Assembly: GCA_038751255.1 (NCBI GenBank)
Contig: JBCDGN010000006.1
Coordinates: 689-64,688, forward strand
Length of the DNA stretch: 64,000 nt
From: Pseudomonadota bacterium
GTDB taxonomy: Bacteria; Pseudomonadota; Alphaproteobacteria; Rhodobacterales; Rhodobacteraceae
Reading direction: 5' to 3'
Shown here: positions 5,154 through 35,206 of the stretch, piece after piece
Position numbering within the stretch: position 1 is the stretch's first letter
Layout: every line of letters starts with the position of its first letter
Position numbers and translations under genes: made by a program
The notes under the pieces: model-generated
Database searches by the model: none
The model's input: only the letters and a program-made list of their open reading frames with translations
Told to the model about the DNA's origin: nothing

Positions 5154-5993
5154 ATGGAAAAACGCCCGCGGTCTTTCTACATCCTGGCCGTCTTCTTCGC
5201 CCTGTTTCTGCTTTTCCTCTATGGGCCGACCATCACCATCGGGATTTTGAGCTTCCAAGGTCCCCAAGGGGGATTGACCTTCCCGATGCGCGGCTGGTCC
5301 TTCCATTGGTTCCGCGATCTCTTCGAAGAACAGGCGGTGGGGGATATCTGGGGCTCCTTCTGGCGCTCCTTCATCTTGGGCATGATGGTCATGGTCACCA
5401 CGGTGGTGGTGTCAGTGATGGGCGGGCTTGCCTTCCGCAAACGCTTTCCAGGCTCCAGCGTGATCTTTTACCTGGTGGTGACCTCGCTGGTGATCCCATC
5501 GATCCTGATTTCCCTTGGTGTGGGGTTGATTTTTTCGCAATCGGGTCTGGATGTGCATTGGTCGACGTCTGGCTTTGGATCGCAGCTGACCTGGACCCTG
5601 CCCTTTGGCCTTCTGATCATGTTCGCAGTCTTCAACCGCTTCGACAAAAGCTATGAGGAAGCAGCGCGGGATCTGGGGGCCACGCCCTGGCAGACGATCC
5701 GCTTTGTTGTGTTGCCGATCATCGCGCCTTCACTGATCGGCGTGGCACTTTTTGGTTTTACGCTGAGCTATGACGAGTTCGCTCGGACGCTTCTAACCGC
5801 TGGCAGCTACAACACCCTGCCACTCGAGATCTTTGGCATGACCACCAATGTCACAACACCGGTGATCTTTGCCCTTGGCACGCTGACGACACTGTTTTCC
5901 TTTCTCGTGATCGGAGTCTTTCTGCTTATGGTCTGGTGGATGAACCGTAGCCGCGCGAAACAGGGCTCTGATGCGGGCAAGGGCATGGTTTGA
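5154..5993 (+). CDS. ABC transporter permease
   Basis: Multi-TM protein with EAA-type loop YEEAARDLGATPWQTIRFVVLPIIAPS. Starts 3 nt after the upstream permease stop. Confidence 0.9.
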   Translation: MEKRPRSFYILAVFFALFLLFLYGPTITIGILSFQGPQGGLTFPMRGWSFHWFRDLFEEQAVGDIWGSFWRSFILGMMVMVTTVVVSVMGGLAFRKRFPGSSVIFYLVVTSLVIPSILISLGVGLIFSQSGLDVHWSTSGFGSQLTWTLPFGLLIMFAVFNRFDKSYEEAARDLGATPWQTIRFVVLPIIAPSLIGVALFGFTLSYDEFARTLLTAGSYNTLPLEIFGMTTNVTTPVIFALGTLTTLFSFLVIGVFLLMVWWMNRSRAKQGSDAGKGMV

Positions 5994-5999
5994 GCCACG

Positions 6000-6638
6000 A
6001 TGACGCTGGTCATCATCAATCCCAATAGCACTGAAGCGATGACCGCTGGCATGCTTGAGGTCGCGCGGAACCTCGCTCCGGATCAGGTGGTTGAGGGGTG
6101 GACCTCGCATTATGGACCGCCCGCGATCCAAGGAGCGGAGGATGGCGCGGCCGCGGTGCCCCCGCTTTTGGAGCTTGTGGCAGAGGCCGATCGTCTCGGG
6201 GCAACCGGGATTATCCTGGGCTGTTTCGATGACACCGGTCTTGCGGAGGCCGCAGAACTAGCACGCTGCCCTGTCTTAGGTCTGGGTCAAGCCGCCTATC
6301 ACACTGCAGCGCTGCGGCAATGGCGGTTCAGTGTGGTGACAACACTCTCTGTCTCGGTGCCTGTGCTGGAAGAAAATATCCTGTCCTACGGGTTATCAGG
6401 CTATTTGGGTCGAGTACGGGCCTCGGACATTCCAGTTCTGGAACTTGAGACTGATCCTGCGGCCGTGGCCCGCATCGCAGCAGAGATTACAGCGGCCCAC
6501 GCAGAGGAGGGGGCTCAGGCCATCGTCCTAGGCTGCGCTGGAATGACCGGCCTGAGCGAAGAGTTGCGCATCCATGCCCCGGTGCCCATCATCGATCCGG
6601 TTGAGGCCGCAGTGAGGTTCGTCGGGGCGGTAGGCTAG
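6000..6638 (+). CDS. Asp/Glu/hydantoin racemase family protein
   Basis: N-terminal LVIINPNSTEAMT motif and ~210 aa size are typical of the HyuE-like racemase family. Last gene of the ABC operon (6 nt after the permease stop). Confidence 0.7.
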   Translation: MTLVIINPNSTEAMTAGMLEVARNLAPDQVVEGWTSHYGPPAIQGAEDGAAAVPPLLELVAEADRLGATGIILGCFDDTGLAEAAELARCPVLGLGQAAYHTAALRQWRFSVVTTLSVSVPVLEENILSYGLSGYLGRVRASDIPVLELETDPAAVARIAAEITAAHAEEGAQAIVLGCAGMTGLSEELRIHAPVPIIDPVEAAVRFVGAVG

Positions 6639-6925
6639 AGGTTTAGGTTTAAGACGCTTGCCAACGAGTAACGCCAGTCAGAAACTCACTTGCTACGCGG
6701 TTGCTTTGTCGAGTGTTGGAATTGCGATGGGCAGCTCGACACTTTTGCCGTCTATTTGGTGACGCCATAGCTGCTTCAAATAGCTTCCCCGCACGCTGTG
6801 TTTTGGCGTTGTTAACTGACATCTAACGAAGAACGCTTGGAAAAAAACTTGCTGGATTGGTGAGTTTGCCGCAACATTGTCCCAAAGGCGCGGGGGAAAC
6901 CCGCCAGCCTTCGGGGGGAGGCTAT

Positions 6926-8785
6926 ATGAGCGATCTGTACAAGCCGAGTATCTACGACCAGAGCGTGGATATCCGGGCCCGGTATTTCCGCGAATGCGAG
7001 GCGATGCTCGCCTATTACATGTCGCGCGGGATCGTGGTCACCAAAGAGATTTCAGACGAAATCGGTGGGCTCGCGGGGTATCTGACGATTGGGATCGACA
7101 AGCGCGACGAGATTCCGATGTCCGCACTCAACCGCTTGCACCATCTGCTCGCGGATTCGATCAAACCCGCATTACCCCGCACCATCGAGATGATGCATTG
7201 GGATGCACGCAACAGACCCATGCGTCATCGGATTGCGCCGGTCCCTGCGATCCGCAACCTCATTATGTTCACGATCTTCTCGTTCGCCTTGGGAATCTGG
7301 ATGCTGGTCCAGGGTGGAGATCCGGCGCTCTACAAAATTTCCATGTTCGATATGGATCCGGGCGATGTGATCCATGTCACATTGTTCTATGCGGCGCTCG
7401 CCTCGACAGGGGCTTGTTTTTCGGTGCTCTATGACGCCAGAAAATATGTGATCGAGGGCAGCTACGACCCCCGAATAGGATCGAATTACGGCATCCGAAT
7501 ACTGCTCGGCATCGTGGCGGGGCTGATCCTGACCCAGTTGCTCGCCGATCCCAAGGTCAATGATGATGGTCAGCCAACCACGGGCCTGCCCTATGGCATG
7601 CCGATCCTTGCGCTGCTCGGCGGGTTTGCTTCGCAATTTGTCTATAACGGTCTGAACAAGATGGTTGAGGCAGCATCGTCTATCTTTGAGCCCAACCGCG
7701 CCCAACAGGTTGATATGGCCGCCAAAGAGATTCGTGTCGCCACGGCAGAGAATAACATGTCGTCCACCTTGGGACGGATTGAGGCCACAGTGGACACCTT
7801 TGCAGAGATCGCGCGCGATCCGAAAAATGCCGCTTCGCCAGAAACCTTGGGCAAGCTTCTGAAGATCGCAGGCTCCAGTCCTGCGGCGCAACCCGCAACA
7901 CGCGCCTTGGGCGCTGCGCTTGGCCCGCATCGGGAATTGCTCGACAAGGTCGAAGGCGCCATCCAGGCAGGTAAGGTGTTGTCGCATGTCCTTCCGGGCC
8001 GAGAGTTGCGGGGGATCGTCTCTAAACTCGGGCGGTTGGAAAGCACGGTCGATGGGATCAAGACACTCGCGGGCGCCGGGGCGCAGTTCGACGCGGCCGA
8101 AAACCTGCTGGGCGTTGCGCGCAATTTGGGCGAACTTGATCCGACCCGGGCGGTGCTGAAACAAGCGGTGAAAGCCTTTGGTGGACTGCGCGGGATTGGA
8201 ACGCTCGCCATGGGGCCTACAGGTCTTGCGGTGGCGCTGATCTTAGGATCTGCCCGGCTTGGCGGGACGGTTTACGATCGCTGGAAAACGCGGGTTCTGG
8301 GCGCGGCTTTTAGCCAAGATCTGTTGCCGCCGGGTCTGCCAAACTCTGGCATGGCGAAAACAATACTGCAGGCGTTGCCCGATCTGTCTGGTCCCATTGG
8401 GGCGCCGCTGATGGACAATCCTGCTGCCTTGACCGATTTCGCGCGCAATGCCGTTGCAGGCCACGATGATGCCCTGTTCTCGGAATACGGCGAGGCGGTC
8501 GGTGGCGACCGGGCAAGTTTTGATGCGGCGCTCAATGACTTTCGGACGCTTGCGGTGGGAGAAGTTTTGCAGGGCGAATTGCCAGACGAGGTGGTCGAAG
8601 CGGCTGGGGCCGAAAACCCACAGGCGCTGTTTGATTTCTTCGATCAGGCACGGGGGGATCGCGAAGCCTTCAAGGCCATGGATGAGCTTTTCCTCGCGGG
8701 AACCAATGCCGCCGATGATGAAAAAGCGCTGCAGGGGTTGCTGAACGGGTTGGCGTCGATTGCTGAAGAGGAGACAACCGCATGA
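6926..8785 (+). CDS. Hypothetical multi-pass membrane protein (first gene of lysis-cassette-like tricistron)
   Basis: ORF track gives 6857..8785; start moved to ATG 6926 (MSDLYKPS) because GGGGGAGG lies 4-5 nt upstream. Four clustered hydrophobic helices (IRNLIMFTIFSFALGIWMLVQ, VTLFYAALASTGACFSVLY, IRILLGIVAGLILTQLLA, MPILALLGGFASQFVYNGL). These are followed by a long Ala/Leu/Gly-rich helical region and a fifth hydrophobic segment (LAMGPTGLAVALILGSA). No family recognised. The stop overlaps the next start (ATGA at 8782-8785). Confidence 0.7.
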   Translation: MSDLYKPSIYDQSVDIRARYFRECEAMLAYYMSRGIVVTKEISDEIGGLAGYLTIGIDKRDEIPMSALNRLHHLLADSIKPALPRTIEMMHWDARNRPMRHRIAPVPAIRNLIMFTIFSFALGIWMLVQGGDPALYKISMFDMDPGDVIHVTLFYAALASTGACFSVLYDARKYVIEGSYDPRIGSNYGIRILLGIVAGLILTQLLADPKVNDDGQPTTGLPYGMPILALLGGFASQFVYNGLNKMVEAASSIFEPNRAQQVDMAAKEIRVATAENNMSSTLGRIEATVDTFAEIARDPKNAASPETLGKLLKIAGSSPAAQPATRALGAALGPHRELLDKVEGAIQAGKVLSHVLPGRELRGIVSKLGRLESTVDGIKTLAGAGAQFDAAENLLGVARNLGELDPTRAVLKQAVKAFGGLRGIGTLAMGPTGLAVALILGSARLGGTVYDRWKTRVLGAAFSQDLLPPGLPNSGMAKTILQALPDLSGPIGAPLMDNPAALTDFARNAVAGHDDALFSEYGEAVGGDRASFDAALNDFRTLAVGEVLQGELPDEVVEAAGAENPQALFDFFDQARGDREAFKAMDELFLAGTNAADDEKALQGLLNGLASIAEEETTA

Positions 8786-9435
8786 TCCGCTATAGCCTTA
8801 TCGCTGCATCGCTCTTGATCGTCGCGAGTTGCGACGCCCCAGGGGTCCGGGCCCTAGATCAGCAGCAAAAAGCCGGATCAGAGGTTCAGGCTGCGACAGC
8901 GCTGCCCAATGATCTATCCGACCCGGTCAATGCCAAGACAGCGCGCAACAAGGCCCGTGCTTGTTTGGAACTCGCCCAGAAGGCGGTGGCAACGGCGCAG
9001 GCCAATACCGATGGTGCGCGCAATGATGCGGCCTGCGCACGCGAGAGCTATGCAAAAATTTTGTCGGATGCGGACCCGGTCACGGCCGCTGATTTCGTGG
9101 GTCAGATGGAAGCCTATCGGTTGACGCGCGAGACATCGACCTCAACCGGTGCGGGACGGCAGGCCAATTCCGCCATCGCGCAAGTGGCGTCACAGTTCAG
9201 TTCGGCAGTGCCCGGGCAGGCGGCGGGCCCCTACTACACCGCTGACAGCCTTTACTGGCAGGCGAGCTTTGCCAGCAGCACGGACCGCGCCTGTGACGAT
9301 CTGAGCGCAGCGGCCGCTGCGCTCGACACTGCGTCGGGTGGTACGAACACCCCGAATTTTCCAAGTTTCAGGGGCTCGGTCCGGGATCTTGACGCCTTGG
9401 TTACCCGAGATGCTGCCCAGAAGGGATGCGCGTGA
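8782..9435 (+). CDS. Hypothetical lipoprotein
   Basis: Signal peptide plus lipobox (SLLIVAS-C), Ala-rich, several Cys. ATGA-coupled to the upstream gene and overlaps the downstream gene by 10 nt. No family recognised. Confidence 0.7.
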   Translation: MIRYSLIAASLLIVASCDAPGVRALDQQQKAGSEVQAATALPNDLSDPVNAKTARNKARACLELAQKAVATAQANTDGARNDAACARESYAKILSDADPVTAADFVGQMEAYRLTRETSTSTGAGRQANSAIAQVASQFSSAVPGQAAGPYYTADSLYWQASFASSTDRACDDLSAAAAALDTASGGTNTPNFPSFRGSVRDLDALVTRDAAQKGCA

Positions 9436-11507
9436 TGACGATCCAGCTTCATGAGCGCGTTTACAAATTCACCACACCGATGATGCGCGGCACTTCGGTT
9501 CAGTTTATTCAGCGGGCTCTGATCGCCGCTGATCTGCTGCCTGCGGGTGAAGATGATGGGCTCTTTGGTACGGCGACGCGCGATGCGGTGTCTGAGTTTC
9601 AGCGCCGAAACGGTCTTGGGGTGGATGGCAAGGTCGGGCAGAACACCGCCGCCGCGCTGAATAAGCTTTTGGATGGCACGCCACCTTCGGAGATGCGGGG
9701 ATCTGGAACGCCATCGGCTCCGAAAAAGCCTGTCTTCACCGGCGCGGGTCCGAAGGTTGTCTCGGATGAACTGTTGCCGAATGCCCGTCCGAAGCGGGTG
9801 ATTATACATTGGACAGCAGGCCGGGGCCGTGCCTCTAACCTCGACAAATCCCATTATCATTTTCTGGTGGAGGAGGACGGCTCGGTGGTTCAAGGGCTCC
9901 ACCGGATCGATGCCAATGACCGACCTCATCCTAACCCGCGCGCCTCGCATACCCGTCGGTTGAACACCCATTCCGTGGGCGTTTCGCTTTGCGGGATGCA
10001 CAATGCCCAGGAGCGGCCTTTCGATGCGGGGAGATTTCCCCTGCGCGAGATCCAAGTGCAGGTCATGGCGCGGCTGGTGGCGCAAATCTGCCGACGCTAC
10101 GACATCCCTGTGACGCGTGAAACCGTGCTTGGGCATGGCGAGGTGCAAGACATCCTCAATGTGGAACAAAATTTCAAATGGGACCCGATGGTGCTGCCGT
10201 GGAAGCGCGATCTGACCTTTCGCGAAACCGGCGACTATCTGCGCGATTTGATCAGAAATGCGATGGAAGAAGACATCGCGGGCGAAGCCGCTGAGACCGA
10301 TGGCACCGGTCAGAGTGATCTCGTGATTTCCGGGCGTAAGGTGTCGGGTGGAGTGATAGATTACGATACCGCCACGTGGATCGCACTGGAACCCACCTGT
10401 CAGGCGATGGGCTGGCCAGCGCCGGTTCTGCTGGGTCTGCCCGAAGATGATAGCCTGGAAGATGAGGCCAATGGGGTTCAGATCGTGCCGAGTGAAGCCC
10501 CAATTGTGCTGTCTCACCGAATGATCCCGGTCGATCTGAAGTCAGAGGTGCTGTGTGTGCGGGCCGATGACTTTGCCGAGGCACTGGAGCTTGGCATCAA
10601 GGTTGAGCCTTCTGGTCAGGTCACGCTCGAAGGCACCATCGGCGGGATTGAAAAAGACGCGGTGACTGGGGCGGTGATGCGTTTTGTGACGATCCAGCGT
10701 GGTGACACACTTTCGGCCATTGCCCGGCGCGAGCTCGGGGATAGTGCGCGCTGGCGAGAGCTGCGGGATGAGGATGGCACGCACTATGATGCGGATAGTG
10801 CGCGGCGCATTTCGGCCGGGGATCGTGTGATGTTGCCGGATGGCACGGCGGCACCAGGGGCCGAAACACAACCGAAATCGGTCGCGGGTCTCACTCCGGA
10901 GATCATCGCAGAAGCCGCGGAAGCCGTCGCGAAGGCGGCCGATCCCGCCTTGAACCGCAAACGCGCCAAAGCGGCACTGCCTGGGATTTTGGAGGCCTGC
11001 TATAAATGGGGCGTCACCGACCGCTCTCACATTGCCTATGTCCTTGCCACGGCGCAGCACGAGTGCAATTTCGGCCACCCGATGGAAGAAAACTGGCGCA
11101 AAAGTGCGGCGCAGTTGGCATATGAGAACAGCAATCTGAACGAAAAAGACGGCGACGGGTTTCTGTTTCGTGGGCGCGGCTATGTGCAACTGACGTTTCG
11201 CTACAACTATCGTCGTTATGGCAAAATCGTGGGACGCGATTTGGAAAATGATCCCGATGACGTGAAAGATCCCGCTGTGGCTGCGGAGATCTTGGTCTAT
11301 GGCATGAGCCAAGATGGGTTTTGTGGACCCAACAAGATCCTATCGGCCTTCGGCGAAGGACCGGATTTCGACTTTATCGGCGCGCGTGCCATCGTGAACG
11401 GCGACAAGAACAAGCACGAAAAGCGCTATGGCACGACCAAAGGTCGGGGCATCGCAGAGCGCGCCATAAGGTTCCGCGACGCTTTAGACACCGTGGACTT
11501 ACCCTAG
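9426..11507 (+). CDS. Multi-module peptidoglycan hydrolase: PG_binding_1 + Amidase_2 (N-acetylmuramoyl-L-alanine amidase) + LysM + GH19/COG3179-like lysozyme module
   Basis: No N-terminal signal peptide. Modules in order: GLFGTATRDAVSEFQRRNGLGVDGKVGQNTAAAL (PG_binding_1); VIIHWTAGRG..HYHFLVEEDGSV..ETVLGHGEV (Amidase_2/PGRP type); VTIQRGDTLSAIARRELGDSARW (LysM); ATAQHECNFGHPMEE..FRGRGYVQLTFRYNYRRYG (phage-endolysin-type chitinase-like fold). Alternative start ATG 9435 (TGATG overlap). Confidence 0.85.
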   Translation: MRVMTIQLHERVYKFTTPMMRGTSVQFIQRALIAADLLPAGEDDGLFGTATRDAVSEFQRRNGLGVDGKVGQNTAAALNKLLDGTPPSEMRGSGTPSAPKKPVFTGAGPKVVSDELLPNARPKRVIIHWTAGRGRASNLDKSHYHFLVEEDGSVVQGLHRIDANDRPHPNPRASHTRRLNTHSVGVSLCGMHNAQERPFDAGRFPLREIQVQVMARLVAQICRRYDIPVTRETVLGHGEVQDILNVEQNFKWDPMVLPWKRDLTFRETGDYLRDLIRNAMEEDIAGEAAETDGTGQSDLVISGRKVSGGVIDYDTATWIALEPTCQAMGWPAPVLLGLPEDDSLEDEANGVQIVPSEAPIVLSHRMIPVDLKSEVLCVRADDFAEALELGIKVEPSGQVTLEGTIGGIEKDAVTGAVMRFVTIQRGDTLSAIARRELGDSARWRELRDEDGTHYDADSARRISAGDRVMLPDGTAAPGAETQPKSVAGLTPEIIAEAAEAVAKAADPALNRKRAKAALPGILEACYKWGVTDRSHIAYVLATAQHECNFGHPMEENWRKSAAQLAYENSNLNEKDGDGFLFRGRGYVQLTFRYNYRRYGKIVGRDLENDPDDVKDPAVAAEILVYGMSQDGFCGPNKILSAFGEGPDFDFIGARAIVNGDKNKHEKRYGTTKGRGIAERAIRFRDALDTVDLP

Positions 11508-11535
11508 CTCTCGGTTCGGCTCCTCAGGCGGAAAC

Positions 11536-14500
11536 CTATCGCGTTGAGCTCGCGGTGGACGTCGGTGGTGCAATTTGTAAGGCCTCTAGATCAATCGCAA
11601 CAGGTTTGGGAGCCTCGCCGGGGAGGGTCCCTGCGCGACGGTCGGACACTCTCAAGATGTGGGTGTTTAAATTCTCGGCCATGGGAATGCCTTCGGCGAT
11701 CTTCACCAGGCCGTCTTGAAAGATCTCAAACTGCGCATGGTAAAGCGCCTGGTTGTGCAGAATCGTTGCTGTGGCTTTCCAAAGACCGGGTGTTTCGGGT
11801 GTGGCCCAAAGCACCAAGGGACGCATCACGGCATGGGCTTGGGCCAGATCGTTGCCGCTGCGGTCGGTCTGCCAAGGCAACGCCTCTGCCGCCTCAAAAA
11901 TAGCGAAACTGCCTTCACCCTGACGCCCGTTAAAGTAATGCGTGTAGAAGCGTAGGTAAGCTCCGACGCTGTGAGCCTGATCCATTTTGATGGGACCGAG
12001 CGCGTTTGCGCGATGGATTGCTTCTATCGACCCATCCAATTCAATTGCCTTTTCGCTGTTGAGAATGACGAAACTGCGAACGGGCGCTCTGGGGCCGAAG
12101 CCGAACTGCGCCTCGACCAATGCACCTTCGTCGTAGAAAGACAGCGCAGTTTCGCGCAGATAAACCAGAGAGTTTTCTTCGTCAGCATCCAAAACCTCAG
12201 CGATCAGGCCAAAACTTGCTTCGAAGTCTTCTCCATCCAGAGTGCGCCAACTCGCATGCAGAAGCGGTGCGCGTCCCCAACCAAGGCCTTCGCGCCCGCT
12301 AAAGGCATCCTCACGGTCCAAATTGCGCAGCTCGCCAAGGACAATAGGGGCCTCCCGTCGTGCTTCGGCGCTGAGCGACGCGCGCCGATCTCTAGCAAGT
12401 TGATTGGCGATATCGCGGGCAAGCGCGAGCCGTGCATCGATCTTTTTGTCCAGCGCCACGCGGGCGATTAGAATGTCGATCGGTTGATCCTCAGGCCTTG
12501 CGTCATCGTCGCTGCCACGGACCAAGTGTTGGAGTTTTTCAAAGCGCTCAATCAACGCCAACACAAGTGGCAGACTATCAAGTGATCCCAAGGTCTCTGG
12601 CAGATAGATATCAATCTCTCGGAGCGCTTGCAGCTCCTGATCAAGGCTGCGGGCTGCACGCAAATAAAGATCGGCCGATATCAGTGCCGAGGTGAGGTGA
12701 CCGGGCTGACCGGGATCGAGCTCTAGCGCATCTCGGAAGGTGGTCAGAGCCAGTCCCAAAGCGGTCTTTGCCTCACTTGTGCGTCCCATAATGTGATGTG
12801 TGTTAGCGGCAGCTTGGTGGACAAAAGCCTGTCTTGCGACGGGTTCAGAGAGGCGCGGCGCAAGTTCTTGCTGCGCTTTGGCTTCTGCGATCGCCTCGTC
12901 ATGGAGCTCCCAGAAAAGTTCTGGCGTCAGACGTTTTTCGCCCAGATGCAGTAGCGCGCCATAGATATTCGCCCTTTGATGCAAGCTATAATAGGCGTTT
13001 GGATCGTCCATCGCATCAACTTGGAAATTGTCCAGAACAAAAAGCGCAGAGGATACAAGATCGTGGTCGAGACTGCCTTGTTGTGCTGCGTTGTCCAAAT
13101 CCATCATTGCCAGCAGCATCTCGGATTCAAACAAAGCTTCCGCTGGCAGCGTGCCTGTTTGCCGGAGTTGCTTGATCGTCTCGCTCATACTATCCCGCGC
13201 GATGTACACTCTGGGAAGTGGTGCCCGACGTTCCAGAATCCACTGCGCGGCGCGGAGCCATGTGGTATCCCAGATCAGCCGGTTTTGTGGCAACCCACGG
13301 GTCTGCAAATCATCGAGCAACGCTTCAGAAGCGATGACATCGGCCTCTGTCTGACCAAACTGATCTGCCGCTGCAGCATAATTCGCGCGCATCACCAAGG
13401 CTGTGAGCAACCGGTGGCGCGTTTCACCATTGCTTTGATCTTCGCGCGCAAGGGTCTCTAGCCGGGAAATCGCGTCATTGAGTGTTCTCGGCACTCCCAT
13501 ATGCGGAGTACGTTCGTAGAAGATGCTCGCTTTTGTGGAATCGATCTTCGCGCGCAACAGCGTAAGGCGGCGGAAATCCATCTCATCGCTGTTCAGAAGT
13601 TCCAGAGCGACGTTGTCGGCCATCTCGATGAACGGATCAGGCGAGATGTCGTAGCGTTCCTCGAAATCGAGATTTCTCAACGCAATCGCGCCATCCAGTG
13701 CTGCATTGGCAATCGCATAGCGTATTGCTGCGATCGAGCGTCCTTCTGCCTCTGCAAGGGTCTCTGGCGCGCCCAGGGCATCTTGCCACTCCGACCTGAA
13801 GCTTTTGAGCACTGGTTCGACACGGTCCCATTGGGTTGCGAAATCTCCGACATCGAACAAAGTCGCGGCGCGAAGTGTCTCTGACCGAACATGGATCTCT
13901 AATCGTTCGACGGCGGAAAAGTCTTGCTCACGCGACAGTTCGTCGGCGCGTTCTAGCCACGTTTCCATTCGGATAAGGTCAAGATCCGCGCTGGCATGTT
14001 CGGCCAAGGCTAAGGCCGCGGCGCGTTCAAGATCAGGTTCGGGCGTCCAGCTGTCTCGCGCATCGGTCAATAAAGTCTCGAGCCGCCCCGCCAAATTGCT
14101 TTCATAGGCCCACATTCCTGCATCGCGCAGTGCGTTCAGGCCCGCCAAATAGAACTCAGCGCGCTGGTGCGTTAGTTCGGGCGACGGTCCGGAGACCTCT
14201 TCAATTGAGAGCAGGGCCTGTTCTGTGTCTTGGATCAGCCCGAGCTTCTCGGATGCCGGTATCGCGGCGTTCGTTTCTAGTCTTTCAACAAAGCCAAGTG
14301 CCAATTTCTCTGTGCTGGTAAGCAGTTTTCCACGTTCTTGAGCGACCTCTTGCTCTTTTTCCTGTGCATAGGTGGCAGCTTGGCGGGCATAGAAAACCGC
14401 GACCAGAGCGATGATGGCAATGACAGAGGCCGTGCCCGCCAGGGTTGCCAAGGCACGGGTGTTGCGGCGTCGGCGCTTTTCAATTTGTTCTTGCTCTGTC

Positions 14501-15957
14501 CGCTCTGCGATTTCGCTCTGAGTAAGAAAGCTTTCCAAGGGCTCAAGCGATTTGACATAGCGCTTCGCCCAGGCCGGCTTTGGGTCCGTTTCGTGCCACC
14601 AATTTGACATGGTGTCCAAATCGAGCCCTGCCAAAAGCCCGCCTTCATTGGCACTGTACCGCGCCTCAGCATTGGCCAATCGGCGGAGCGATGCCGCAGC
14701 GGCGGCCTCTTCCCCAACCCAGGCGGACAGATCGGTCCATTGACGGATCAAACTTTCATGGCTGATATCGACGATCATATCCGGACTGAACGGCTGCGAG
14801 ATGTCGGGCCGTAAATAGTTCGCGCCGGTGGCGCGGAACGCGTCGATCACTGGGGCCAAAACCATCGGATCAGCGTCAATCTCGTTTGCGAGGTCCGCAA
14901 CGCGCAGGGGACGGCGTGTCGCAGCTTCAAGCGACACACCACGGACAAGTGAGCGAAAAATCTTTGGCACAATCGCTTTTTCAGCATCGCTGAGGCCTGC
15001 GATGATTTCATCGCTATGGGCGTCAATCGCACCTTTCAGGCCGCCCAGGGCGACATAGGCCTCGCTGGTCAAAACGACGGGATCATCATCTGCAGCCAGT
15101 TGCCATAGGCGGTTCAACAGATGTTGCATAACCGGCAACTGATCCGCGCGACGTGACAGCGCACGCAGCTGGTCCGAAAGGTCTTCCGCCCCCCAAGGCG
15201 CGAAACTGCTGAGATCGTTGAGAATCGTGTTGACCAATTTGGGCTCGATCTCGGTCCCAACCAGGCGGGCAGGTCCAACGATCGCCTGACGGCACTCTTC
15301 GCGCGTCATCCGCGGTGTTAGGTAACTGCCCGCGTTGATCCATTCTGTCAGATTGGGGATCAATGCACAGGCACCCAGGAATTCCGATCGCATGGTCAAG
15401 ACCACATGAATCCGGCCTTCTGACCAATCGGCGGCCTCCGTCAGCAGTTTGACGAACGCCTCCGCGGTTTCGCGTTCCTCATATTGCGAGAAGCGAAACA
15501 GTTCTTCGAATTGATCGACCAGCACCAATAGCTGCGCTGATTCCGGGATATGCCCATCTTCGATCCATTCGACCAGTGATCGAGGCCCGCGTCGGAGGTT
15601 CCACTCCAGTGCATCAAGTTGTTCGTCCAGAGTGGCTTCGGTGGTTTCTTCGCCGGAATGGATGGTCTTCAACGCCCGCGCAAGACTTCGGATCGGCTGA
15701 CCGCCCGGGGCGAAGTCGCAAAAACACCACTCAGAGCCCGCGGGGTGCAAGCCCAACTCGAGCCCTTCGAACAGACCGGTGCGAACAAGTGAAGACTTCC
15801 CAGAGCCCGACGCACCTAAGACAGCCAGAAACCTGGTTTTGTGCAATCGTTGGATCAGTTCTGCAACCGCGTCGTCCCGTCCGAAGAATAAATCACCCTC
15901 GTCAGTGTTGAAGGCACGTAATCCGGGATAGGGCAGTCGAGCTTGCGGATTGGTCAC
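11536..15957 (-). CDS. STAND-class P-loop NTPase with one transmembrane helix and a ~950-aa helical-repeat C-terminal region
   Basis: Long ORF 11536..16152. Start placed at GTG 15957, which overlaps the TGA of the upstream TIR gene (GTGA); the remaining 5' part of the ORF lies inside the TIR CDS. N-terminal motif PYPGLRAFNTDEGDLFFGRD, Walker A GASGSGKSS, Walker B LLVLVDQFEELF. RRRR followed by the helix ALATLAGTASVIAIIALVAVFYA (nt 14386..14454). TPR-like helical repeats, then an unassigned globular C-terminus. Confidence 0.85.
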   Translation of the reverse strand: MTNPQARLPYPGLRAFNTDEGDLFFGRDDAVAELIQRLHKTRFLAVLGASGSGKSSLVRTGLFEGLELGLHPAGSEWCFCDFAPGGQPIRSLARALKTIHSGEETTEATLDEQLDALEWNLRRGPRSLVEWIEDGHIPESAQLLVLVDQFEELFRFSQYEERETAEAFVKLLTEAADWSEGRIHVVLTMRSEFLGACALIPNLTEWINAGSYLTPRMTREECRQAIVGPARLVGTEIEPKLVNTILNDLSSFAPWGAEDLSDQLRALSRRADQLPVMQHLLNRLWQLAADDDPVVLTSEAYVALGGLKGAIDAHSDEIIAGLSDAEKAIVPKIFRSLVRGVSLEAATRRPLRVADLANEIDADPMVLAPVIDAFRATGANYLRPDISQPFSPDMIVDISHESLIRQWTDLSAWVGEEAAAAASLRRLANAEARYSANEGGLLAGLDLDTMSNWWHETDPKPAWAKRYVKSLEPLESFLTQSEIAERTEQEQIEKRRRRNTRALATLAGTASVIAIIALVAVFYARQAATYAQEKEQEVAQERGKLLTSTEKLALGFVERLETNAAIPASEKLGLIQDTEQALLSIEEVSGPSPELTHQRAEFYLAGLNALRDAGMWAYESNLAGRLETLLTDARDSWTPEPDLERAAALALAEHASADLDLIRMETWLERADELSREQDFSAVERLEIHVRSETLRAATLFDVGDFATQWDRVEPVLKSFRSEWQDALGAPETLAEAEGRSIAAIRYAIANAALDGAIALRNLDFEERYDISPDPFIEMADNVALELLNSDEMDFRRLTLLRAKIDSTKASIFYERTPHMGVPRTLNDAISRLETLAREDQSNGETRHRLLTALVMRANYAAAADQFGQTEADVIASEALLDDLQTRGLPQNRLIWDTTWLRAAQWILERRAPLPRVYIARDSMSETIKQLRQTGTLPAEALFESEMLLAMMDLDNAAQQGSLDHDLVSSALFVLDNFQVDAMDDPNAYYSLHQRANIYGALLHLGEKRLTPELFWELHDEAIAEAKAQQELAPRLSEPVARQAFVHQAAANTHHIMGRTSEAKTALGLALTTFRDALELDPGQPGHLTSALISADLYLRAARSLDQELQALREIDIYLPETLGSLDSLPLVLALIERFEKLQHLVRGSDDDARPEDQPIDILIARVALDKKIDARLALARDIANQLARDRRASLSAEARREAPIVLGELRNLDREDAFSGREGLGWGRAPLLHASWRTLDGEDFEASFGLIAEVLDADEENSLVYLRETALSFYDEGALVEAQFGFGPRAPVRSFVILNSEKAIELDGSIEAIHRANALGPIKMDQAHSVGAYLRFYTHYFNGRQGEGSFAIFEAAEALPWQTDRSGNDLAQAHAVMRPLVLWATPETPGLWKATATILHNQALYHAQFEIFQDGLVKIAEGIPMAENLNTHILRVSDRRAGTLPGEAPKPVAIDLEALQIAPPTSTASSTR

Positions 15958-17414
15958 AAGCGCGGTTCCAATACGTGAAAGATCCGGTCGATGTCGAAGC
16001 CATCGGTGCAATCGATAACTTCGAGACTTGGAAAGCTTTGGTTGATTGATGCACCGCCCTTCGGAGGCGCTTTCACTAAAACCGTGAATTCCGGAGGTGT
16101 TTCGCGCAGGGCAATCGCGCGTCTCAAGCGATTCAGGAAGCTTCGCACCCAAGACACGGGCGCATTGCCCTGCATCATCAAAACCGCATCACTTTCGGTG
16201 AGGTTGAACCAGATATCCTCGTCCCGCTCATGCGGATCGTCATCGAAACAGGGAATTGCCGCGAAACGTTTGCGCGCACCAAAAGCCTGCAAAAGCTCTG
16301 AGGCGATGTGTTCGTCGCTGGCATCGGCGCCTATGAAGTAGTGTGATGTGCTGAGCTTTTCAGGCGCAGGCTTCTTGATCTTTTCCAGGCGTTCGACAAT
16401 CTCAGATTTGAACGCTTCCAATCCTGAGGCGATCACATGTTCTGCGGATAAAAGACTTTGATGATGTTCTTGTGGGATCTGTTCAAGGTCGATTTCCTGA
16501 TGGCGCCAGCCGAGCCGCTCGACACCCGCCGCTTGGGCTGCGTCAGCCTGATACATGGGATAGCCGTCCGGCATATCCGGTGGTTGGCGTCCCGCTGTTC
16601 GACCGAGCAATTGCACGAACAAATCAGCGTCCTGCAAATCTTTTTCGAAGGCTGCGCGAAACTCCTCGCCGCCTTGTGGATAGTGGAACTCTGGGACGAC
16701 CTTGATACCAAGCTGCATAAGCGCCGCCCGCACCTGTTCGCGTTCAAAATCCACATCCTCGGTTGATTGCGCCAACAGCACGGTGCCGCGATCAGAAGAT
16801 TGCGTTTCATCAATCTCTGGATCTAAACGAGCACTTGGCGCGATCGGCCTTGTTCTGGTGCCGCCGGACGAGCGCGCATTCCGGATATCGACCAATGCAT
16901 CACGCAACTGATTGGCAAGCTGTGTGATATTTGTCATGTAGAGTTCCCAATCGGTCTTTATGTCGAGCATCATAGGTGTCTGCCCGGTCGGTCCGGAACG
17001 CCGCCAAAACTCAAACCGCAGATGTTCCGATAGCCCAAACCGCGCCTGGCCAGTTTCTTCTAGTGGCAATAACTCAACAAAGAATTGCTGGTTTGAGGAG
17101 GGGTTGTGCCGCCGAAAGCAATCCAGTTCCAGCTGCGTGTACTGGCTATTGACGAAGGCCGGCGAGGCAAGGCCGAGAAACAACGCTGATCCACCGACCT
17201 CTTCGGTCAAAGCCTGATCCAACACTTGATTGGCGCGCAGATGCGTTTGGTCCCAGAACACCTCAACCCCTTGTTGGCTGAGCCTTTGGTTCAGCATCTC
17301 CCTTAGTCGCTGAACGAAAGTTTCTACGACCCCATGATCGTCAGAGCCACGAATATTATCCGCGTGGGCATAACTGATAAACAGGTCGTTTTTGCATCCA
17401 GGAATGAAGGCCAT
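15954..17414 (-). CDS. TIR domain protein with unassigned ~340-aa C-terminal extension
   Basis: N-terminus KNDLFISYAHADN plus SQYTQLELDCF (conserved Glu position) fits the TIR fold. The later stretches DADLFVQLLGRTAG and SDAVLMMQGN resemble DUF4062/TIR-like strands, but I cannot assign them. Confidence 0.85.
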   Translation of the reverse strand: MAFIPGCKNDLFISYAHADNIRGSDDHGVVETFVQRLREMLNQRLSQQGVEVFWDQTHLRANQVLDQALTEEVGGSALFLGLASPAFVNSQYTQLELDCFRRHNPSSNQQFFVELLPLEETGQARFGLSEHLRFEFWRRSGPTGQTPMMLDIKTDWELYMTNITQLANQLRDALVDIRNARSSGGTRTRPIAPSARLDPEIDETQSSDRGTVLLAQSTEDVDFEREQVRAALMQLGIKVVPEFHYPQGGEEFRAAFEKDLQDADLFVQLLGRTAGRQPPDMPDGYPMYQADAAQAAGVERLGWRHQEIDLEQIPQEHHQSLLSAEHVIASGLEAFKSEIVERLEKIKKPAPEKLSTSHYFIGADASDEHIASELLQAFGARKRFAAIPCFDDDPHERDEDIWFNLTESDAVLMMQGNAPVSWVRSFLNRLRRAIALRETPPEFTVLVKAPPKGGASINQSFPSLEVIDCTDGFDIDRIFHVLEPRL

Positions 17415-17642: not shown

Positions 17643-19157
17643 TCAGTTGCCGAAGAGCTTATTTCCGAAGGCGTTGCCAATGCCCTCACCCACCCCTTTG
17701 ACAAAGGAGTTCACGGCTCCGTTGCTCTTCTTGGATCGGCTCGAAGAGGATGACCGACTGCCGCCGCTGCTGGTGGATTGCGTGACCATATATGCGGCGT
17801 AGGTTGCCTCAGTTTGGCTGGTCAGCAGTTCAAGCTGCAAAGAATTCAGGTACTGCGTTGCAGGCAGTCCATTTGAGGTTTGCCAAGCAGCGATGCCGCG
17901 GCGTGTATTGGGACCGAAGGCGCCATCAGGTGTGCCAACATTGTTGTTGGTTGCGTTGAGACGCGCCTGGATTTCCCGGCGCTTGTCTCTGTCCATGTTT
18001 AGCGCCTGCTCTGTGATCTGAGTTGCAGGTGCGACGATGACATGCTGTGTCACATTCAAGACCAGAGGCAACGAGGGATCATAGGTGCTGATCGCTCGTG
18101 TGGCGGCGGCTACATTTGGTGCTTCCGGCTGGGCAGGTGCTAGGCCCGCAGTTTGCTCTTCAGCACCCTGCAGACGCTCAATAGCAATCCGTGCGAAGCG
18201 GGCATAGCGACCGTTTGGGTAAAAGTCCAAATACGCTTGGTAATCCTCAGCAAAACCGGATTCCCGCGCGAGTTCAAACATGTACTTTTCTTCTTCGAGA
18301 TCGACAACGGATACAGCGGCAGCAGGCGCGTCGGTTGCGGTCTCTACGGGTGCGGCTGGTGCCGCCGCAACGCGATGCAAAACGACTTCATCGGTATACG
18401 ACTGGTTGAACCAAGGACGCTGTTGCTGATCCGTGGCACGATACACATCCCCGGTCACACGCGACATGATCGTGGTGATCGGTTCATTGGGGGTGCCGAT
18501 ATGCTTCAGCAGCGCTTCGGTGAAAGGCGAATGCTGTCCATCGCCGTCCAAGGCGACGTTGCCTGGCTCTGTTGCGAAGACAATGCCCGTCCCCGACCCA
18601 TTGTCCTGAACATTCATCTCACTCAGTCCGGCCCCACCGATGGAGCGTGTGGAGCCTTTCAAAGAACGCGCCAGCTTGTCCTGGAAAGGATTGTCGCGAC
18701 AGGCGTCCAAGATCAGCAGATTGGCGCCTTGGGTATATTCCATCTGCTTGGTGATCACGTCGATCGAGAAGGCCTCAAAGTCGATGGAAAGCTCATCATC
18801 CATTACGGCATCGACAGGGATAAGATAGTTGCGGCCGTCCACCTGAATGCCGTGACCGGCATAGAAAAATAGCGCCATATCGGCTGAGCGCACCTCGCGA
18901 GCGAACTCGCGGGCCATTTTCGCCATATCTGCAGCGCCGAGATCATAGCCTTCCAGCGTTTCGAAGCCGAGCGTGCGCAGCTTAGCTGCAATCGCTTGCG
19001 CGTCATTCTTAGGATTGGCCAGCGGACTTGCGTGTTCATACTCGCTATTGCCAATGATGAGGGCGACTTTGGCAGCAAATGCTTGAACGGGTGTGGTGAC
19101 CACGAGGATCGCTGCGAATGCGATGTTGCGAACCCTGCGGGAGGTGATCTGTTCCAT
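17643..19157 (-). CDS. Exported caspase-family (peptidase C14) protein with C-terminal PG_binding_1-like domain
   Basis: Signal peptide (VQAFA-AK). KVALIIGNSEY, His motif FFYAGHGIQ and Cys motif LLILDACRDNPF. C-terminal GTPDGAFGPNTRRGIAAWQTSNGLPATQYL, then a Ser/Gly-rich tail. Confidence 0.9.
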   Translation of the reverse strand: MEQITSRRVRNIAFAAILVVTTPVQAFAAKVALIIGNSEYEHASPLANPKNDAQAIAAKLRTLGFETLEGYDLGAADMAKMAREFAREVRSADMALFFYAGHGIQVDGRNYLIPVDAVMDDELSIDFEAFSIDVITKQMEYTQGANLLILDACRDNPFQDKLARSLKGSTRSIGGAGLSEMNVQDNGSGTGIVFATEPGNVALDGDGQHSPFTEALLKHIGTPNEPITTIMSRVTGDVYRATDQQQRPWFNQSYTDEVVLHRVAAAPAAPVETATDAPAAAVSVVDLEEEKYMFELARESGFAEDYQAYLDFYPNGRYARFARIAIERLQGAEEQTAGLAPAQPEAPNVAAATRAISTYDPSLPLVLNVTQHVIVAPATQITEQALNMDRDKRREIQARLNATNNNVGTPDGAFGPNTRRGIAAWQTSNGLPATQYLNSLQLELLTSQTEATYAAYMVTQSTSSGGSRSSSSSRSKKSNGAVNSFVKGVGEGIGNAFGNKLFGN

Positions 19158-19205: not shown

Positions 19206-19754
19206 TCAAAGGTTTCCGATGTTCACGATTTCAATGCGCTGGTTCATAGGATCGGCGGCATTGCCGGAGTTCAGTGCCGATGCGCCCATACCTTGAACGC
19301 CCAAGAACTTGTCCGTGCCCATTCCGTAGAAGCCTTGCAGATGTTCTAGGACAGTCTGCGCGCGCCGGGCAGAGACAGGCTGTGCCGAAGCCGGTGCGTT
19401 CGGCGTATAGGCATAAGCCAATATCTGGAACTTTGAGTTTTGTAAGCGGGGATCTTCCAAAGCCGCAGCAAGTGTGCGTAAAGTTTTCATCCCATCTACC
19501 GTTAAAAGATGAGACTCGCCCTCGAAACCAACTTGAAGCTTGGCCACCGGTTGGCCGGAGGCTTGCAGCGCGACTGCATTTGCATTCTGATTTGGACGTG
19601 TAACTCCGCGATCGGCCGCCATTTGCGGCATCAGGGCAGTCACAATTTGTTCATACGAGAAGGATGCTTGCGCGTTGGTTGCGGGTGCAAATGACACCCC
19701 TAAAAACCCAGCAATCAATCCAATTCTAACAGTTCGATTCAAGGATTCTAGCAT
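19206..19754 (-). CDS. Exported OmpA_C-like (peptidoglycan-associating) protein, degenerate motif
   Basis: ORF track gives 19206..19829. Start moved to ATG 19754 (MLESLNRTVRIGLIAGFLGVSFAPATNAQA is a signal peptide, with AAGG 5 nt upstream). C-terminal FQILAYAYT..VSARRAQTVLEHL..NQRIEIV matches the OmpA C-terminal pattern, with the GHTD box degenerate. Confidence 0.7.
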   Translation of the reverse strand: MLESLNRTVRIGLIAGFLGVSFAPATNAQASFSYEQIVTALMPQMAADRGVTRPNQNANAVALQASGQPVAKLQVGFEGESHLLTVDGMKTLRTLAAALEDPRLQNSKFQILAYAYTPNAPASAQPVSARRAQTVLEHLQGFYGMGTDKFLGVQGMGASALNSGNAADPMNQRIEIVNIGNL

Positions 19755-20302
19755 ATGCCTTACCCCAATTGACTGATCTGCGAAATCCAGCAGCGACCTA
19801 TAGAAAAGACCATTTGGACGCCACGTCAAGAAGTCTAACCAAAGCCCAAATCAGAAGCTAGAATTTTTGCCCTCAACCCAGAGTTTACCGCTTATTTATG
19901 AGTCCTAGCGCACATTAACATCTTGCTTGGCGACCTTAGATCCGCCATGCAACTGGGGCGGGCAGTCTCACAAAATATTGTTACAATTGTATATTATCGA
20001 AAGCACAGGCTTGGTGCCTATGAAGGCTTTGCCGCCGTTCCGGCCTCCAACAGAGGCGGTATTTTTGCTGATGAAATGCCGTTATCACGCTCCACTGCCA
20101 CGGTAGACATAGTTTAACTTGACTTAGGGTCCCCTCAGCGAGGAACGTTTGCGGGCGATTCCAAACGCCGCATCGTGGTCTAAACGAGTGTCGGCAGTCA
20201 TATTTTTGAACGAATGAGAAGTTGATGCTAAATTACGCTGGTTTTATAAAACTACGGATTGTCAATTCCCGGAATTTTTCGACTATTTGACCGGGTCCTC
20301 AC
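19755..20302. promoter_or_regulatory. AT-rich divergent control region between the two exported-protease operons
   Basis: 548 bp without a credible ORF, between a minus-strand start (19754) and a plus-strand start (20303). Visibly AT-rich and contains the perfect 10-bp palindrome TACAATTGTA at 19982..19991. Promoters inferred from gene geometry only. Confidence 0.4.
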
Positions 20303-21079
20303 ATGCATTTTTTCCGAATTGTGATAAGTCTCCTGTCGATCCATCTGATAGTTGCGCCGGCCATCGCGCAAAGCCAACGCGCGTTGAGCGTCGAGCAAAT
20401 TACAGTACAAGAAGCAAAGCCGAGCGAAGGCGCGTATTCGATCACAGCGACGCTCAACAATTTCGATGGGGTTTACCGTATTGGTGATCCAGTTGATGTT
20501 TCTGTAAGCTTAGACAAATCAGCCTATGTCCTGGTTCTGAACGTCGATGAAAGCGGGCGTATTGTTCAGCTCTTTCCTAACAAATTTGAGTCACGGAATT
20601 TTTTCCAGGCTGGGCAGACCTATAAGTTACCCGGTGAAGGCGCACGCATCGTCGCTGCGGGACCACCTGGGCTTGAGTTGATCAAGATCATTGTGTCCGA
20701 GAAGTCTCTTTCTTTGGATGCGATGATGGAAACAGCGCCGATTGGACCTTTTGAGATCACGCCCCCAGGTGCGGGTGAGGGTGTGGCGCGTGCACTGGGC
20801 GTGTCGCCCTTGCAAATGCCTGCAAGCCCGGATCCAGAACCCGAAGCTCCGAGTCCGGTGGAGGTTCTCCCTGAGTTCGGGGCTTGGGCAGAGTTGACCT
20901 TGGTTCTGAGCACGGTGTCTGCTGACGACAGTCCGAGCGGTGCGGCCCCAACACTCCCTGGAGAAGGTGAACAGGGAGAAGATAGCGGCATGGCGCCCGT
21001 TGCGCGCATGCTCTGCAGTGGGGTGCGAAACCTCACCAATCAGCCATTTGCTGTAAAGGAGCAGATCGAATGCGTTTAG
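20303..21079 (+). CDS. Exported DUF4384 domain protein
   Basis: Signal peptide (APAIA-QS). YRIGDPVDVSVSLDKSAYVLVLNVDESGRIVQLFPN matches the DUF4384 pattern. Pro/Glu-rich linker in the C-terminal half. Confidence 0.75.
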   Translation: MHFFRIVISLLSIHLIVAPAIAQSQRALSVEQITVQEAKPSEGAYSITATLNNFDGVYRIGDPVDVSVSLDKSAYVLVLNVDESGRIVQLFPNKFESRNFFQAGQTYKLPGEGARIVAAGPPGLELIKIIVSEKSLSLDAMMETAPIGPFEITPPGAGEGVARALGVSPLQMPASPDPEPEAPSPVEVLPEFGAWAELTLVLSTVSADDSPSGAAPTLPGEGEQGEDSGMAPVARMLCSGVRNLTNQPFAVKEQIECV

Positions 21080-26042: not shown

Positions 26043-26043
26043 G

Positions 26044-29663: not shown

Positions 29664-29812
29664 TGGCTTGGATCACGCAAGTGCTGTGCTAGTGATTGCC
29701 CGAGAATGGGGTATTAATCTAGCCGCTATTTGGAACTGCTGGGTTTGGTACATGCTGGGGCAACGGTGGGATTTCGGGAGTGGCTCAGGGACGCTTGGGT
29801 GGTCCGCGTGAC

Positions 29813-32983: not shown

Positions 32984-33001
32984 GAGCGAGAGACTGGTCG
33001 C

Positions 33002-35196: not shown

Positions 35197-35206
35197 AGCA
35201 ATTACC

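Follow-up and report, generated by a model that had tools for sequence, protein, structure and literature searches.

A rare, non-phage operon of Alphaproteobacteria encodes a membrane protein, a lipoprotein and a signal-less two-enzyme peptidoglycan hydrolase and may act as a lysis module

The window analysed here, a 64,000-nt stretch of contig JBCDGN010000006.1 (assembly GCA_038751255.1, positions 689 to 64,688) from a member of the Rhodobacteraceae, stems from a marine metagenome with sequencing runs of DNA only and contains three overlapping open reading frames (ORFs) that encode a membrane protein (ORF1), a lipoprotein (ORF2), and a multi-module peptidoglycan hydrolase that lacks a signal peptide (ORF3). 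We propose that this trio is an autonomous, non-phage operon whose membrane protein brings the hydrolase to the cell wall, probably with lysis as the result. We hold this reading tentatively, at a probability of about 0.45. What would be new is the make-up of this non-phage module for hydrolase release, namely an unrelated membrane protein, a lipoprotein with a fold resembling tetratricopeptide repeats (TPR), and a fused dual endolysin.

According to the ORF listing, ORF1 (6926..8785, forward strand) consists of 619 amino acids (aa). By direct reading of the sequence, a Shine-Dalgarno element, GGAGG, lies at 6917..6921 on the same strand, 4 nt 5' of its ATG; the TTG at 6857, further upstream, is a conceivable but improbable alternative start. 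ORF2 (8782..9435, forward strand, 217 aa) shares an ATGA start/stop overlap with ORF1 at 8782..8785, and an equivalent NTGA is found in 13 of 13 loci, which bears out the initial annotation of three overlapping, coupled genes. ORF3 in its longest form extends over 9426..11507 on the forward strand and encodes 693 aa from ATG 9426. Its 10-nt overlap with ORF2 (9426-9435), as first described, holds if this codon is used. The ORF2 stop overlaps a second candidate start as well, ATG 9435, through a 1-nt overlap within the sequence TGATG (9433..9437, forward strand), which gives a gene at 9435..11507 and a protein of 690 aa. ATG 9435 is most likely the true start, because the TGATG arrangement recurs in the homologous loci L019, L001, L005, and L020; in the alignment, the L019 protein begins at the equivalent methionine. 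An ATGA occupies the same junction in L002, L004, and L009. Across the 13 loci, TGATG or ATGA is present between ORF2 and ORF3 in eight, and mostly just a short gap separates the two genes in the others. Judged from these conserved junctions, the NTGA and TGATG overlaps represent translational coupling of the trio genes. All three appear to be real genes, as indicated by their G+C content at third codon positions (0.65-0.67) and by the fact that about 19 independent loci conserve them together. Promoter and terminator scans of the trio returned background levels only. Upstream of the trio, no regulatory motif common to the loci was found, neither a LexA box nor a full CtrA site; CtrA half-sites occur in only three loci, and a single LexA-like match in L008.

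The ORF3 protein is composed of four modules, all encoded on the forward strand (residues in 693-aa numbering). An N-terminal PG_binding_1 module (9486..9659, aa 21-78) matches Pfam with an E-value of 6e-16 (58.8 bits, cutoff 23), followed by an Amidase_2 module, an N-acetylmuramoyl-L-alanine amidase (9783..10187, aa 120-254; Pfam E 1e-17, 64.9 bits, cutoff 26). A LysM-like wall-binding module (10680..10835, aa ~419-470) is matched weakly by NCBIfam (E 5e-3) and PHROG (E 3e-4). The C-terminal part forms a GH19/COG3179-like glycosidase module of the endolysin type (10911..11426, aa ~496-667; PHROG_181 endolysin, E 8e-31). Here, the Pfam GH19 match covers aa 567-619 (E 2e-6, 28.6 bits, cutoff 25.5), and PHROG endolysin families widen it to aa 498-667. 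The PG_binding_1, Amidase_2, and GH19-like modules had been recognized from the translation alone, and the Pfam scores above cutoff and the PHROG matches confirm them. The LysM call holds in part: the match in the window protein itself is weak and lies below the Pfam cutoff, but the core motif GDTLS.IA.R.LG...W is kept across the aligned ORF3 family, and the relative L023 scores above that cutoff. In 11 family members, the zinc-binding and catalytic signatures of Amidase_2 (HWT.G, YH, LGHGEV, KWDP) are invariant. The GH19 signatures LATA.HE..G...E and GRG[YF]VQ[LI]T are likewise conserved in the 11 members, one of which carries Q in place of the first Glu. Because the catalytic motifs are conserved in the family, both enzyme modules look active.

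Both catalytic modules resemble phage enzymes. Endolysins of Sinorhizobium, Rhizobium, Rhodobacter, and Paracoccus phages share 40-45% identity with the amidase module, and those of Acinetobacter and E. coli phages about 35% with the GH19 module. The nearest solved structures are the phage GH19 endolysins 9hqw and 4ok7, AmpDh2 (4bj4), and the peptidoglycan-binding domain of the KZ144 endolysin (3bkh); the PG_binding_1 module additionally matches 5nm7 by sequence. The fused architecture was not found in phages, where none of 114 matching records covers at least 80% of ORF3. A metagenome scan seeded with ORF3 returned 500 relatives. Three of the 80 that were kept match over the full length (L021, L022, and L023), and both L021 and L022 are trio loci. 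The third, L023 (5016-6851), encodes a stand-alone, signal-less Amidase_2-LysM-GH19 hydrolase of 611 aa without PG_binding_1, and by eye its neighbours appear metabolic (hydantoinase/oxoprolinase-like, oxidoreductase-like, and amidase-like). In two Mangrovicoccus loci, the identities to the window proteins are discordant: L004 shares 54% with ORF1 and 39% with ORF3, L005 48% and 59%, respectively. This pattern suggests recombination or an exchange of hydrolase genes inside the module.

ORF3 carries no recognizable export signal, in agreement with the initial annotation. An in-frame stop codon lies 11 codons 5' of ATG 9426 and leaves no room for a signal peptide, and the hydropathy profile reveals no hydrophobic segment anywhere in the protein. 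All 11 aligned homologues start 10-25 residues before PG_binding_1, and none contains a hydrophobic segment. A hidden signal peptide or a mis-called start can be ruled out on account of the upstream stop and the short N-termini of the homologues. An endolysin of the signal-anchor-release type is likewise ruled out, given that the N-terminus of ORF3 has no hydrophobic segment.

The lipoprotein assignment of ORF2 is upheld by its lipobox, LIVAS-C17, which is conserved in the alignment of all 12 positional homologues. Only three ORF2 homologues are detectable among 5.8 billion proteins, which points to fast evolution. The number of cysteines is even across the 12 homologues, with six in most and four conserved ones in the window protein, and this conserved even number suggests a disulfide-bonded extracytoplasmic fold. 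The AlphaFold2 model (predicted local distance difference test score, pLDDT, 82.8; predicted template-modelling score 0.77) consists of a disordered tether at about residues 18-45 and a seven-helix bundle. Foldseek places the bundle near generic TPR and 14-3-3-like folds, with weak matches (E ~1e-2, TM 0.4-0.5). On the basis of this model, ORF2 is predicted to be a protein-binding, TPR-like scaffold whose flexible tether spans about 25-30 residues, and not a spanin. The analogy to spanins that had been drawn initially is therefore abandoned: the mature protein of about 195 aa is modelled as a disulfide-bonded, TPR-like globule with intramolecular cysteine pairs, it has no C-terminal transmembrane (TM) segment, and no gene for an inner-membrane partner (i-spanin) was found. 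ORF2 is reminiscent of LpoB, NlpI, and periplasmic immunity proteins, as it presents a lipid-anchored, tethered helical-repeat binding domain and is encoded beside a wall hydrolase. Unlike these, it shares no sequence homology with them, and its partner hydrolase is made in the cytoplasm.

Structurally, ORF1 is predicted to be all-helical (AlphaFold model from 15 homologues, pLDDT 78). The model comprises an N-terminal helical domain (aa ~16-101), a 4-TM core that is also evident from hydropathy (aa ~105-254), long helices (aa 258-420), and a confidently modelled C-terminal helical domain (aa 430-618). The four TM helices of the core are robust and are located at residues ~112-130, 151-169, 189-207, and 221-243. 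A fifth hydrophobic helix, assigned to the C-terminal domain (423-444), is doubtful, with borderline hydropathy throughout the family (Kyte-Doolittle 1.2-1.8) and positive charges on both sides. The first description of ORF1 as a 5-TM protein may thus hold, with four helices secure.

An exhaustive profile search with ORF1 returned 1,396 cluster representatives (clusters at 50% identity) at E <= 1e-3, most of which are proteins of about 320-400 aa. These short forms match just profile positions ~24-330, corresponding to the N-terminal helical domain and the four TM helices, and about 35 cluster representatives are full-length forms. By sequence, we therefore view ORF1 as the core of a large uncharacterised cellular family joined to an extension of about 375 residues that characterizes the full-length forms. 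Wherever their genomic context is visible, the full-length forms are linked to a hydrolase. The short forms are annotated as 'hypothetical proteins' of Nitrosomonas, Methylobacter, Gallionella, Deltaproteobacteria, and others, have no match in Pfam, PADLOC, or PHROG, and carry the conserved motifs GT[YF]DP..Y..SYWIR and LGGFS in the cytoplasmic loop and TM helices 3-4. In two of seven genomic contexts examined, the short form follows a sensor pair consisting of Peripla_BP_6 and dCache_1 proteins, and dCache_1 is encoded nearby in a third. These sensor contexts of ~330-aa short forms are located at L015 2645-7002, L102 2495-6987, and L103 6001-12195. In L102, the short form overlaps the binding-protein gene by 1 nt, and the genomes with the sensor pair are mutually unrelated. 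The sensor linkage hints at a ligand-gated membrane module. One may go further and regard the core family as signal-gated membrane-permeabilising proteins, that is, cellular analogues of holins whose short forms, be they stand-alone, sensor-linked, fused to leucine-rich repeats, or duplicated in tandem, would represent a new class of regulated cell-death or membrane-gating effectors, a speculation that we consider unlikely. In that case, the long form with its linked hydrolase would offer a first hint of what the core family does. Variants of the core include an N-terminal fusion to leucine-rich repeats (P0048, 589 aa) and tandem duplications of the N-domain and the 4-TM region (P0038 and P0047).

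The trio is rare. A word-indexed search with ORF1 recovered 17 proteins from the 5.8 billion, and a survey of about 185,000 species genomes (one genome per species) yielded 11 trio loci, all in Alphaproteobacteria. Their hosts are Mangrovicoccus, Paraoceanicella, Rubrimonas, Rhodobacteraceae, Geminicoccaceae, and unclassified metagenome-assembled genomes. A further copy resides on the chromid pTAV3 of Paracoccus versutus UW1 (EQ718_RS17270, RS17265, and RS17260), a cultured host in which claims about the trio are directly testable. Wherever a locus is sequenced far enough, it encodes the membrane protein, the lipoprotein, and the full-length four-module hydrolase together. L013 and L014 show a permuted gene order, in which an Ala-rich lipoprotein of 261 aa with an ORF2-like cysteine pattern is encoded immediately upstream of ORF1. 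A two-gene variant with a dispensable lipoprotein, initially assumed for these two loci, was withdrawn when this gene was found. In L014 (7289-9963; also in L013, 4-2399), the lipoprotein gene is preceded, with a 4-nt overlap, by a gene for an Ala-rich soluble protein of 630 aa without Pfam match, which may be a fourth component of the permuted variant.

The genomic surroundings of the trio are variable and, over about 17 further loci, mostly of a housekeeping nature. Elsewhere it is flanked by putA/asnC (Rhodovulum sp. P5), by secE-nusG, ribosomal protein genes and rpoBC, or by ftsZ/ftsA/lpxC, and on pTAV3 it lies between a patatin-like gene and a two-component system. No Pfam family is common to the 62 flanking ORFs of 12 further loci; the 25 best-scoring families represent housekeeping functions, with 36 single-member families beyond these. 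Two loci lie 150-230 bp downstream of tRNA genes, namely tRNA-Leu(GAG) at L002 9688-9774 and tRNA-Phe(GAA) at L003 7191-7266. This position fits horizontal acquisition at tRNA hotspots; no integrase was seen near either locus. Judged by this distribution, the trio is a rare alphaproteobacterial module of marine hosts.

We postulate the following mechanism. ORF3 is a fusion made in the cytoplasm, with two wall-binding (PG_binding_1 and LysM) and two catalytic (Amidase_2 and GH19-like) modules, and it cannot take the Sec or Tat route. ORF1 would be translated from the shared message and serve as a dedicated inner-membrane component that gives the hydrolase access to the peptidoglycan, whereby the conserved 4-TM core could act as a gate or pore and thus as a functional holin analogue, and the ~375-residue extension could act as an adaptor for the hydrolase. 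In the periplasm, ORF2 would bind the hydrolase as an inhibitor, activator, or scaffold. A dependence of the hydrolase on the membrane protein is backed by the retention, without exception, of all three components in the loci with enough sequence. The presumed outcome is that the expressing cell, or a subpopulation, undergoes programmed lysis. Lysis is expected because a folded enzyme of about 76 kDa would cross the membrane, bringing with it two lytic activities and two wall anchors.

The closest functional parallels are the type 10 secretion systems (T10SSs), which are holin/endolysin/spanin clusters that are found outside phages and act by lysis (PMC10847048). Like the T10SSs of Serratia (ChiWXYZ) and Yersinia entomophaga (YenLC), the trio is chromosomal, non-phage, and unlinked to prophage structural genes, and its signal-less hydrolase appears to be co-expressed with a membrane protein and a lipoprotein, with hydrolase release and lysis as the expected outcome. 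The parts themselves are different: a 619-aa membrane protein that contains large soluble domains and resembles no holin family, a TPR-like lipoprotein without an i-spanin partner, and a four-module, two-enzyme fusion of about 690 aa in place of a single small endolysin. Moreover, the trio is not linked to cargo (chitinase or Tc toxin) or to a dedicated regulator, and its hosts are marine Alphaproteobacteria, not Enterobacterales. With phage lysis cassettes, the trio shares endolysin-type modules, a signal-less hydrolase, tightly overlapping genes, and an N-terminal PG_binding_1 module as in modular endolysins of the KZ144 type. It departs from them in its gene order (membrane protein, lipoprotein, hydrolase), in the several-fold larger size of all parts, in a hydrolase architecture that no phage record reproduces, and in its absence from phage and viral contigs: ORF1 and a short relative have no tblastn match in 50,697 phage genomes, and ORF1 and its short relatives are absent from 2.9 million IMG/VR viral contigs. 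Measured against holins, which typically fall below about 220 aa, ORF1 does have four TM helices, yet it is far longer and has no match in Pfam or PHROG. ORF3, in turn, is a muralytic enzyme without secretion signal. By analogy, then, the trio would work most like a T10SS or a phage lysis cassette, although it belongs to neither by homology. Of the holin/spanin/endolysin logic proposed in the initial annotation, the signal-less hydrolase and the general idea that it depends on a co-translated membrane protein are supported; a likeness to known holins and spanins is not.

If this proposal is correct, ORF1-mediated delivery of a folded ~76-kDa hydrolase would be a new, phage-unrelated solution to the holin problem, and the concept of the T10SS and lysis cassette would then cover marine Alphaproteobacteria and a wholly different set of parts. 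A first functional handle would also be gained on a protein family of about 1,400 clusters that is without any annotation. In addition, ORF3, with its two enzymes and two anchors, represents a natural fusion of endolysin modules for walls of the Gram-negative type and is thus of enzymological interest.

Several observations weigh against lytic delivery through ORF1. Typical holins are 3-6 times smaller than ORF1. ORF1 has no match in Pfam, NCBIfam, PADLOC, or PHROG, and its predicted fold finds nothing significant in the PDB (best E 0.18) or BFVD (best E 0.057), so that no likeness in sequence or fold to any known holin, transporter, or secretion component emerged from the searched databases. 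The core family is conserved as if it had a specific biochemical function, unlike the fast-evolving holins, and it may be ligand-gated. In the seven contexts examined, the short forms are stand-alone genes, none of which is translationally coupled to a hydrolase gene. No equivalent of a spanin is evident in the trio, which leaves the disruption of the outer membrane unexplained. No partner resembling ORF1 or ORF2 is encoded within 5 kb of the L023 hydrolase, which implies that this membrane protein is not an obligatory companion of such hydrolases. Finally, the operon is linked to no cargo, regulator, or trigger, and no gene family recurs beside it across loci. Our limited confidence reflects above all the dissimilarity of ORF1 to holins, its conserved and possibly ligand-gated core, the missing outer-membrane disruptor, and the stand-alone hydrolase of L023.

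The most serious competing explanation, which we nevertheless consider unlikely, assigns the trio to antagonism between bacteria, with ORF3 as an effector against neighbouring cells, ORF2 as its immunity protein, and ORF1 as an exporter or release factor. ORF2 is periplasmic, fast-evolving, and coupled directly upstream of the hydrolase, and its predicted fold is protein-binding. Such traits are typical of immunity proteins to wall-degrading effectors, as in the Tae/Tai and Tge/Tgi pairs of type VI secretion systems (T6SSs) and in pesticin/Pim. The patchy, accessory distribution of the trio and the two loci beside tRNA genes would suit this role as well. However, ORF3 begins with PG_binding_1 and has no recognizable trafficking domain, nor does it contain a recognizable receptor-binding or translocation domain for the outer membrane of a target cell. 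Genes of a T6SS or another secretion system are absent from the window and from the annotated flanks of the other loci, and an immunity gene preceding its toxin gene would be atypical.

A role of the trio in wall remodelling without lysis is less probable still. Here, ORF3 would be an accessory autolysin that ORF1 translocates or anchors, and ORF2 would be an outer-membrane-tethered regulator comparable to LpoB or NlpI; the system would serve to edit peptidoglycan locally or to move proteins in a holin-like, non-lytic way. The TPR-like bundle on a long disordered tether does resemble LpoA/B and NlpI, and the conservation of the ORF1 core family is of the kind expected of a dedicated membrane machine. 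A precedent exists in the proposed non-lytic, holin-dependent translocation of proteins (PMC9527704). Nonetheless, a module found at 11 variable sites in about 185,000 species genomes is not a housekeeping function, the enzyme modules of ORF3 are nearest to phage endolysins and not to cellular autolysins, and two catalytic modules combined with two for binding point to destruction of the wall as a whole. The archetypal T10SS cassettes once held to be non-lytic were, moreover, later shown to act by lysis (PMC10847048).

Since the hosts include Rhodobacterales, which commonly possess gene transfer agents (GTAs) and release them by means of an endolysin-holin pair encoded elsewhere (PMC5026251), we also considered whether the trio is an orthologue of the lysis locus of the Rhodobacter capsulatus GTA (RcGTA; rcc00555 endolysin and rcc00556 holin) or a decayed prophage cassette that releases GTA particles. 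Both are known or presumed lysis gene sets placed apart from phage-like structural clusters in Rhodobacterales chromosomes, and the amidase module of ORF3 resembles endolysins of Rhodobacter phages. The RcGTA locus is, however, near-universal in Rhodobacterales and has conserved flanks, cycJ and a heme lyase gene (PMC5026251), whereas the trio is rare and has variable flanks, none of them cycJ or heme lyase, and no GTA genes nearby. Indirect sequence evidence points in the same direction: rcc00555 stays under a 32.5% threshold with every R. capsulatus (Rc) phage gene (PMC8601537), and the RcC-cluster endolysins of these phages match ORF3 at 43%. On distribution, synteny, and this indirect evidence, the RcGTA lysis locus was rejected as an explanation. 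A prophage remnant was rejected as well, as neither ORF1 nor its core has a homologue in the phage and viral collections searched, and the window contains no phage or GTA genes, as initially stated for phage genes; elsewhere, the trio is embedded between cellular genes. We regard a GTA- or prophage-related origin of the trio as very improbable.

Scarcely credible is a role in the scavenging and recycling of muropeptides along AmpG/AmpD lines, in which the lipoprotein binds fragments, ORF1 imports them, and ORF3 degrades them in the cytoplasm: a binding lipoprotein, a membrane protein, and a hydrolase without signal peptide would fit an uptake system, and Amidase_2 includes the cytoplasmic enzyme AmpD, but the PG_binding_1, LysM, and endolysin-type GH19 modules act on polymeric sacculi that are not importable, the amidase is nearest to phage endolysins and the periplasmic AmpDh2 and not to AmpD, ORF1 has 4-5 TM helices without similarity to transporters (Foldseek match to AmpG, E 0.68), and ORF2 is TPR-like and does not adopt a solute-binding-protein fold.

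The trio also borders an island of STAND, TIR, and caspase genes, and the initial annotation had suggested that it could be the suicide or lysis effector arm of this island, triggered by it. The operon indeed ends 28 bp (11508-11535) from the convergent nSTAND1 gene, one of the island caspases likewise contains PG_binding_1, and the trio of Paracoccus adjoins a patatin-like phospholipase gene. In L020 (5414-8191, P. versutus pTAV3), this gene encodes 925 aa and precedes the trio on the same strand at a distance of about 800 bp; that a patatin occurs both there and in the window island is probably a coincidence. The decisive comparison is provided by the contig L019, which holds the closest relative of ORF1 (87% amino-acid identity) and aligns with 78-80% nucleotide identity to window positions 5752-6639, 6801-11503, and 33001-33954. 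On it, the trio occupies the equivalent chromosomal site and the flanks agree with those of the window, but 67 bp stand in place of 11504-33000, which identifies the island as a 21.5-kb indel beside an older resident operon. No convincing direct repeats or att sites were found at the island borders. Following the suggestion that homologous trios be checked for linkage to STAND/TIR genes in other genomes, no STAND, TIR, or caspase gene was seen to flank the trio in about 17 other loci, and tblastn with the window island proteins detected no homologue beside any trio; the trio thus occurs without conflict-system neighbours. In addition, the convergent orientation excludes co-transcription with nSTAND1. 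We therefore give the role of an island effector almost no credence. From its genomic occurrence, the trio is independent of the adjacent STAND/TIR/caspase island, and a spacing of 28 bp to the STAND gene is no evidence of membership in that system. PADLOC returned no match for the three trio genes or for the short relatives of ORF1, by which a known defence system was also ruled out.

Within the window, the trio is preceded by an Asp/Glu racemase gene and an ABC transporter. Downstream, Pfam identifies nSTAND1 (11536-16152), a TIR_2 protein (15954-17414), a caspase with PG_binding_1 (17643-19157), and OmpA (19206-19829), all on the reverse strand. The longest ORFs of the TIR and nSTAND1 genes overlap by about 200 bp (15954-16152), and the true nSTAND1 start is probably located downstream of the TTG at 16152, because the nSTAND1 domain begins at aa 74. 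These genes are followed by DUF4384 (20303-21079), a serpin (21070-22134), a second DUF4384 protein (22140-22736), OmpA (23512-24519), a caspase (24522-26042), a caspase with DUF4384 (25999-27522), a RyR-domain protein (27519-29663, reverse strand), a patatin (29780-30910), and a 687-aa protein without Pfam match (30920-32983). Beyond 33 kb, genes for a membrane protein, a subtilase, and a PAP2 protein precede sugar catabolism genes. The membrane protein (238 aa; 33002-33718, reverse strand) overlaps the Peptidase_S8 subtilase (514 aa; 33715-35259, reverse strand) by 4 nt, and both are kept in L019 with 90% and 71% amino-acid identity, respectively, over the part present. This membrane-protein/protease pair at the right border of the island may form another small coupled module.

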